Shown here piece by piece: positions 15,868 to 17,088 of a DNA stretch of 25,600 nt (position 1 is its first letter; each line of letters starts with the position of its first letter). A program made the translations under genes and the position numbers. Origin of the DNA: Candidatus Pacearchaeota archaeon (GTDB lineage: Archaea > Nanobdellota > Nanobdellia > Pacearchaeales > GW2011-AR1); the NCBI GenBank assembly GCA_016784085.1, contig JADHVH010000006.1:1-25600 (forward strand), given 5' to 3'. The notes under the pieces were generated by a model that did no database searches, was not told where the DNA came from, and worked only from the letters and a program-made list of their open reading frames with translations.

Positions 15868-17088
15868 TCATTCCCGAGTATATCTATTGAAGGCATTTAA
15901 AAGCTTAAAATATTCTTGTTTTTCCATAACTTTGTCAGCTTCGGACAATCCAACTTGTTCTGCAAACTTCCAAAATGCTTTTGGATTATAACCTTGTTTT
16001 TTTAATGAAGCTAGAGTTGGGAGTTTTAAATCATCCCATCCACTGTATTTACCAGCGTCGATATCTTGCCTTATTTTAGTTGTAGATAACTCCAAATCTT
16101 TAAATTTTATTCTACCTATAAATCCTACCCATGGAAATTTTTTATCTAAAACTTTATAAATCATTTCTTGACGTTTAGAATTATCCCTGTGATCTTTTCC
16201 CCTAATAATGTGAGTCATTTTTAATTCAATGTCATCAACTGTTACTGCTAAATTCATTAATGGCCAAACTTTAAATTTATTTTTTGTTCTAGGATGTTTT
16301 GTCAAATTAATTCTAGCTAAAGGAAAATCTCTCATGGCTGGATTTTTATCTTTCATTCCATTTTGTGATTTAAATCTTACAACTGCTTGACCTTCTGTAT
16401 AACCTTTTTTGTCAAGCATATTTTTCCATCTTTTTTTATTTTCAGAAATTTCTAAGTTTCTACATGGACAGTTTTCTTTTTTTTCAGAATATTTTCTAAA
16501 CTCATCTCCAGAACAAGTACAAACATAAGCATTATTTTTATTAATTAATTTTTCAATATATTTGTAATAAAGATCCATTCTATCTGATTGAATTACTATT
16601 TCTGTTTTTATTCCCTTTAATAACCAATTAGATTCTTCTTTAATCATCTTGTAGGCAGAAGGATAAATATTTTCAGGATTAGTATCTTCTATTCTAATAT
16701 ATAGTTTACCTCCATATTTTTTAACATAAAGTGCAGATAGGCAAACAGTTATTGCATGACCAATGTGCCAGGGTCCTGAAGCAGAAGGCGCAAATCTCAT
16801 TATTACTCCTGATTTTTTTACATCTGGCAATTCTTCTAAACCTTCTCTAACCTCTCTTTCACTAACAAATTTATTTAATTTTTCAAATTCTTTTTTTTGT
16901 TCTTCTAAAGAAAGAGCATTTACTTCTTTAGCAATTTCTAAAATTTGTTTAGAATATTTTTTTACATCTTCTTTTTTAAGGCCATCATGAAATAAAGAAG
17001 AAATAATTGAACCAGCTTTTGCTTGACCTTCATAAGTTATGGCATTTTTTAATGCATATGCTTTAGCTTTTTTCTCAAAATCTTTCAT
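15868..17088 (-). CDS. gltX: glutamyl-tRNA synthetase, archaeal type, lacking the C-terminal anticodon-binding domain
   Basis: 406 aa. HIGH motif (RFAPSASGPWHIGHA), IRIEDTNPE, AYVCTCSGDEFR...CPCRN, NPAMRDFPLARI, VWPLMNLAVTVDDIELKMTHIIRGKDH, the KMSKS-equivalent LSTTKIR, and KYSGWDDLKLPTL. The N-terminal helical segment (YALKNAITYEGQAKAGSIISSLF) is as I recall in archaeal GluRS. The ORF stops ~70 aa after the KMSKS-like motif. Confidence 0.85.
   Translation of the reverse strand: MKDFEKKAKAYALKNAITYEGQAKAGSIISSLFHDGLKKEDVKKYSKQILEIAKEVNALSLEEQKKEFEKLNKFVSEREVREGLEELPDVKKSGVIMRFAPSASGPWHIGHAITVCLSALYVKKYGGKLYIRIEDTNPENIYPSAYKMIKEESNWLLKGIKTEIVIQSDRMDLYYKYIEKLINKNNAYVCTCSGDEFRKYSEKKENCPCRNLEISENKKRWKNMLDKKGYTEGQAVVRFKSQNGMKDKNPAMRDFPLARINLTKHPRTKNKFKVWPLMNLAVTVDDIELKMTHIIRGKDHRDNSKRQEMIYKVLDKKFPWVGFIGRIKFKDLELSTTKIRQDIDAGKYSGWDDLKLPTLASLKKQGYNPKAFWKFAEQVGLSEADKVMEKQEYFKLLNAFNRYTRE

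Follow-up and report, generated by a model that had tools for sequence, protein, structure and literature searches.

The window, a 25,600-nt stretch of a Candidatus Pacearchaeota archaeon genome (assembly GCA_016784085.1, contig JADHVH010000006.1, positions 1 to 25,600), carries a gltX gene for a 406-aa archaeal-type glutamyl-tRNA synthetase (GluRS), the parts of which are listed in Table 1. The original prediction described a GluRS that ends after its catalytic core without an anticodon-binding domain (ABD), and the protein agrees with this description: its stop lies on a domain boundary of the M. thermautotrophicus enzyme (3AII), PF00749 is its sole Pfam domain, and the ABD-EQ barrel (PF03950/PF20974) was not found in it. 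The HIGH motif, Cys-rich insertion and LSTTK loop that had been recognized are all present, as is the archaeal N-terminal helical segment. The C-terminus, ending in FNRYTRE, lies 68 residues past LSTTK, close to the roughly 70 residues first estimated for the KMSKS-like motif. A hidden local frameshift had been judged impossible, rightly so, as only the short spacer with its AGGAGG separates the stop from the pilin ATG.

Table 1. Features of the gltX gene and its downstream flank in the window
Feature	Position	Strand	Basis
gltX, 406-aa archaeal-type glutamyl-tRNA synthetase without both anticodon-binding beta-barrels	15868-17088	-	ORF, Pfam, NCBIfam, 3AII alignment, model
Four-helix domain at the N-terminus, residues ~1-85; may bind the tRNA D-loop/elbow	16834-17088	-	predicted helices
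HIGH motif, residues 108-111	16756-16767	-	sequence; H108 invariant in 42 short forms
Zn-binding C190-T-C192...C207-P-C209, connective-peptide insertion (residues 190-209)	16462-16521	-	4/4 Cys invariant among short forms
R296 (RGKDH, same in 3AII)	16201-16203	-	3AII alignment
KMSKS-equivalent loop LSTTK, residues 334-338	16075-16089	-	sequence, 3AII alignment
Stem-contact fold, approx. residues 358-403 (= 3AII 354-399), whole to the last helix	15880-16017	-	3AII alignment, model
62-nt spacer with Shine-Dalgarno (AGGAGG) of the next gene; too small for the missing domain	15806-15867	-	
Pilin-like gene, conserved downstream gltX neighbor; synteny marker, no functional part	15341-15805	-	

All class Ib features (HIGH, the KMSKS-like loop, the Zn insertion and the Glu-binding Arg) are present; R296 is the residue that we take to bind the Glu side chain, its counterpart in E. 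coli GlnRS presumably being Cys229. The best NCBIfam models are those of archaeal GluRS, and PRK04156 was matched over 3-394 of 567 positions. An alignment with the Methanothermobacter structure had been proposed as a means of locating the truncation point. In this alignment, residues 8-395 correspond to 3AII 8-391 of 553. The 3AII domains comprise YqeY (1-85), the stem-contact fold (354-399), the proximal barrel (400-408 and 500-552) and the distal barrel (409-499) (PMC2978374); since the proximal barrel begins at 400, the stop falls on the boundary between the stem-contact fold and this barrel. The predicted structure is confident throughout (pLDDT 92.8) with a last helix at 390-405, and 3AII is its best structural match (rmsd 1.7 over 321 columns, 41% identity). 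The short GluRS has kept its catalytic site, its Zn insertion and its stem-contact fold undamaged, and purifying selection acts on them.

The N-terminal helical extension of about 85 aa that characterizes archaeal ND-GluRS is found as well, aligning to 3AII from residue 8 and forming four helices in the model (4-18, 25-34, 39-57 and 61-74). This domain is called YqeY in 3AII (PMC2978374). In fold comparisons, YqeY (Z 4.7, rmsd 2.0, 46 aligned) and the human GlnRS N-terminal domain (Z 4.4, rmsd 3.9, 59 aligned) both scored within background, and a Foldseek search with the domain gave no matches.

Downstream of gltX, two tandem pilin-like genes occupy 14811-15805 (-). A pilin follows gltX at 37 of 43 short loci and at 18 of 51 full-length loci, many of the latter having short flanks; because the same pilin follows both forms, the short gltX sits at the orthologous housekeeping locus. 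Two further protein families recur near short gltX (31/42 and 24/42 loci), and two orphans of the window, at 17804-18154 (-, 116 aa) and 18250-19746 (+, 498 aa), resemble them by size alone. The window also contains tRNA-His(GUG) at 14586-14657 (-), upstream of an operon ending in hisS (12664-13833), and tRNA-Trp(CCA) at 3465-3537 (-).

The short form across the order

The source bin is only 62% complete, which could point to an assembly error or a pseudogene. However, an independent assembly (GCA_900089805.1, a 603,548-bp contig) contains a 406-aa gene with a base-identical stop and spacer and equal gene order, at 96.5% identity to the window across 3.9 kb. Homologues of the same length number in the hundreds; the 120 best are 387-427 aa long with PF00749 alone, some of them named Pacearchaeota glutamate-tRNA ligase. 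The endpoints of all 42 extracted short gltX genes agree to within 0-7 residues, the catalytic residues are invariant across short forms, and dN/dS is 0.04-0.18 (8 pairs), never above 0.18. An artefactual or decayed gene is thus refuted by the independent assembly, the same-length homologues and dN/dS, and we regard it as practically excluded. The ABD loss is shared by many genomes as a trait of the lineage and is no peculiarity of the locus at 15868-17088.

Because of the incompleteness of the source bin, 200 genomes of the same order, all MAGs, were searched. A GluRS core was found in 197 of 201 genomes. In family f1 (159 genomes), 64 genomes carry the full enzyme, 6 lack the distal barrel only, and in 89 no credible ABD match was found, about 84 of these 89 carrying the GluRS core. 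Among genomes at least 90% complete, GluRS is present in 75 of 76 and an ABD match in 41 of 76.

Of the three explanations that the original prediction had left standing, one was a split gene, with the anticodon barrels encoded elsewhere and, on the present data, diverged past detection. AARS Online does list fissed AlaRS, PheRS and PylRS, one genome (G279) has a frameshifted gene, and another (G038) encodes a stand-alone 101-aa C-terminal GluRS barrel fragment (L128:932-1234). This fragment, however, lies about 3 kb from a full-length gltX in the same genome, and the intermediate-length enzymes described below reflect barrel deletion, not fission. Matches to PF03950 occur in 92 genomes, all inside the GluRS reading frame. 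Two lineage-specific profiles were built from the order's own barrels and detect the intermediates' remnants of about 55 aa (E 1e-3 to 1e-34). With PF03950 and both profiles, no stand-alone ABD was found in any short-form genome of the 200 MAGs, and nothing credible appeared in about 84 short-form genomes, including those assembled in 1-3 contigs. The source bin likewise yielded none with PF03950, PF20974 or an unfiltered hmmsearch of the lineage profiles, a weak result by itself at 62% completeness. The split-gene explanation was therefore dropped as very unlikely. In one further genome (G045, L124:806-3301), a secreted DUF2341 protein (832 aa) shares its reading frame with the C-terminal half of a GluRS of the intermediate type, either an interrupted gene or a misassembly.

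Another of these explanations took the protein for a GluQRS-like paralogue acting outside translation, with the true GluRS encoded elsewhere; YadB/GluQRS is a known GluRS paralogue consisting of the catalytic domain only (PMC2978374). In contrast, each genome has one GluRS-family gene, at the orthologous gltX locus, and the short protein is archaeal-type with the stem-contact fold and N-terminal domain retained. GluQRS models score it at 71-110 bits against cut-offs of 250-453. A search for a second full-length GluRS, as had been suggested, found no second GluRS or GlnRS in short-form genomes; second PF00749 matches in five of them, considered as extra GluRS/GlnRS, are CysRS. Matches to the bacterial-type helical ABD are confined to reading frames of 495-545 aa, probably LysRS-I. 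A GluQRS-like role is thus highly improbable.

Size classes and the history of barrel loss

Besides the full-length and short forms, there is an intermediate class of 467-501 aa, from which precisely the distal barrel is missing while the proximal barrel and native C-terminal motif are retained. In the catalytic-core tree, nine intermediates group with the short forms in a single clade (100/100), the sister group of which consists of full-length enzymes from other Nanoarchaeia. A subclade made up of intermediates alone splits off first within it; intermediates outside this clade are placed elsewhere in the core tree. This branching, read from the core of a mosaic gene only, is as would be expected for a series from 560 to 470 to 400 aa, and the barrels were probably lost stepwise, the distal one first (~470 aa) and the proximal one next (~400 aa).

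The mosaic nature of gltX is seen in N-terminal domains that group by host lineage and cores that have been swapped. In the N-terminal domain tree, those of all short and intermediate GluRSs cluster together, and one gene (G061, L082:2143-3639) combines a short-type core with a genus-type N-terminal domain and tail. This pattern suggests that recombination has replaced the core more than once, and with such a mosaic gene it is uncertain how many barrel losses there were and in which order. The N-terminal domain is more conserved in short forms (0.56 versus ~0.43 at matched core identity); this difference was not taken as support since it is confounded, cores being exchanged whereas N-terminal domains stay with the host lineage. 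Short-form genomes are slightly smaller (0.69 versus 0.78 Mb), a comparison among non-independent kin.

Beyond the order, nearly all GluRSs are about 540-630 aa long; several cluster representatives of about 400 aa were omitted as probable fragments (a cluster-mate of P0127 has 554 aa). The exception is family f37, in which one genome (G249) and its relatives stop at the same boundary and no ABD was found in the genome. GluRSs of about 400-412 aa with this endpoint, outside the Pacearchaeota-type clade, lie at L309:2164-3363, L334:3001-4200 and L332:3001-4239 (f37; P0291), and these are possibly independent losses. The f37 short form is separate in the best tree, and a single clade with the f1 short forms is not rejected (AU p=0.34).

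Proposed tRNA selection without the anticodon

To the extent that the GatDE pathway is retained, Glu-tRNA-Gln must be made, and the short gltX is the sole candidate for making it. GatD is present in 194 of 201 genomes, including the source bin, and GatE in all 16 genomes tested; GatE was not found in the 62%-complete source bin.

tRNA genes of 52 genomes were compared, the sets being near-complete for four of them, two with the short form and two with the full-length enzyme. In these, tRNA-Glu and tRNA-Gln have in common a 9-nt D-loop (A-N-N-G-G-N-N-A-A), U11-A24 and a 4-nt variable loop. The combined signature occurs in 68 of 70 Glx tRNA genes and in none of 170 other tRNA genes; the 9-nt D-loop alone is found outside Glx only in long-armed tRNA-Leu. 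Both tRNA-Glu(CUC) and tRNA-Gln(CUG) of the source bin match it. In E. coli, the identity of tRNA-Glu is known to involve U11-A24 and a missing nucleotide 47 (PMC9976931). The signature is equally frequent in genomes with full-length GluRS and would therefore be a pre-adaptation; as a pattern in tRNA genes, it shows that anticodon-free recognition is feasible, not that it is in use. An enrichment of C13-G22 and C3-G70 in short-form tRNA-Glu/Gln was set aside as phylogenetically confounded, the source bin tRNA-Glu having U3-A70. One tRNA-Glu(CUC) carries a 97-nt intron at the anticodon loop (G000, contig C5, 18070-18239).

Based on these observations, the short GluRS is likely the cell's sole non-discriminating GlxRS-A, functioning without an ABD or anticodon reading. 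The minimal GluRS is thus the supported one among the three earlier options. The enzyme would select its tRNAs via the acceptor stem. The retained stem-contact fold, which we take from GlnRS/GluRS complexes to be placed to read the D-stem, may read the D-stem and inner corner (U11-A24, 4-nt variable loop), and the YqeY-like N-terminal bundle may bind the 9-nt D-loop at the elbow. The D-loop is recognized by GatB/GatE (PMC2811023), and in yeast GlnRS removal of the GatB-like N-terminal domain raises the tRNA KM 30-fold (PMC3333875); by analogy, an elbow-binding role of residues 1-85 is plausible. Archaeal ND-GluRS has no base-36 loop (PMC2978374), which makes the barrels of lower value. Reading base 36 is not required of a non-discriminating enzyme, and relatives with the full-length form already have the signature, so that the barrels would have become dispensable.

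In characterized GluRS and GlnRS systems, no determinants are stronger than the bases of the anticodon (PMC9976931), so a core-only enzyme is expected to be slow or error-prone unless compensated. These normally strong determinants favor a housekeeping enzyme that needs a non-homologous, trans-acting tRNA-binding partner, either Arc1p/Trbp-like or GatDE itself; in the archaeon M. thermautotrophicus, GluRS and GatDE bind each other (PMC2943598), and an unrelated protein would be invisible to homology searches. However, the most conserved neighbor, the downstream pilin, adjoins full-length gltX too. GatE of the 16 genomes (L337-L352) is about 480-505 aa long and lacks profile positions ~265-399 in short- and full-length-GluRS genomes alike. 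The missing stretch is probably a GatE-specific insertion domain, presumably the one proposed to dock GluRS. Moreover, GatDE would serve tRNA-Gln only, never tRNA-Glu, and together with the absent central insertion this makes it a poor candidate. Dependence on a partner is accordingly unlikely; of the earlier option of a minimal GluRS relying on another factor, the minimal enzyme stands, and no evidence for the factor was found.

Relation to known systems and meaning

The short GluRS shares with archaeal ND-GluRS (GlxRS-A; 3AII; PRK04156/TIGR00463) the N-terminal domain, Rossmann fold, Zn/CP insertion, stem-contact fold and GatDE partner, and differs in the absence of the proximal and distal barrels (3AII 400-552); only because of this missing third does it score 423 against a cut-off of 516. 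YadB/GluQRS is likewise a natural GluRS-family protein without an ABD, but that protein of about 300 aa derives from the bacterial enzyme, occurs as an additional paralogue beside a full-length GluRS and modifies the anticodon of tRNA-Asp, whereas the short GluRS is archaeal-type and single-copy, occupies the gltX locus, and retains both the stem-contact fold and the N-terminal domain. AlaRS and SerRS read tRNA identity outside the anticodon and belong to families that never depended on an anticodon domain; in contrast, the short GluRS represents a secondary ABD loss in a family whose anticodon determinants are strong. Dubois et al. (2009, PMID 19496540) reported a GluRS that is specific for tRNA-Glu despite its C-terminal truncation. 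That enzyme is reportedly artificial, of the bacterial helical-ABD type and stimulated by its free distal domain, whereas the loss seen here occurred in nature and no gene for a free domain was found. No paper on an ABD-less archaeal GluRS was found in the open-access literature. Judged from its sequence, the short GluRS would function like archaeal ND-GluRS while lacking the ABD that defines it, and it does not appear to be a GluQRS. According to PMC3927822, the ancestral GluRS probably consisted of no more than its catalytic domain.

Within one archaeal order, enzymes of 560, 470 and 400 aa form a natural three-step series that offers a direct test of class Ib fidelity without anticodon reading and could reveal the role of the never-resolved archaeal GluRS N-terminal domain. 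An anticodon-blind GluRS/tRNA pair could also serve genetic-code engineering. Furthermore, the scores of short gltX genes do not reach curated family cut-offs, and such genes can be wrongly annotated as partial or absent. We consider it an evenly balanced proposition that, in a large archaeal lineage, the synthetase behind the translation of Glu and Gln codons makes no contact with the anticodon at all, reading a D-loop/tertiary-core signature through its YqeY-like domain without a helper, after a stepwise loss that possibly occurred again, independently, in a second Nanoarchaeia family. If true, this would be a living anticodon-independent "operational code" for Glu/Gln, in which the tRNA anticodons would be freely changeable.
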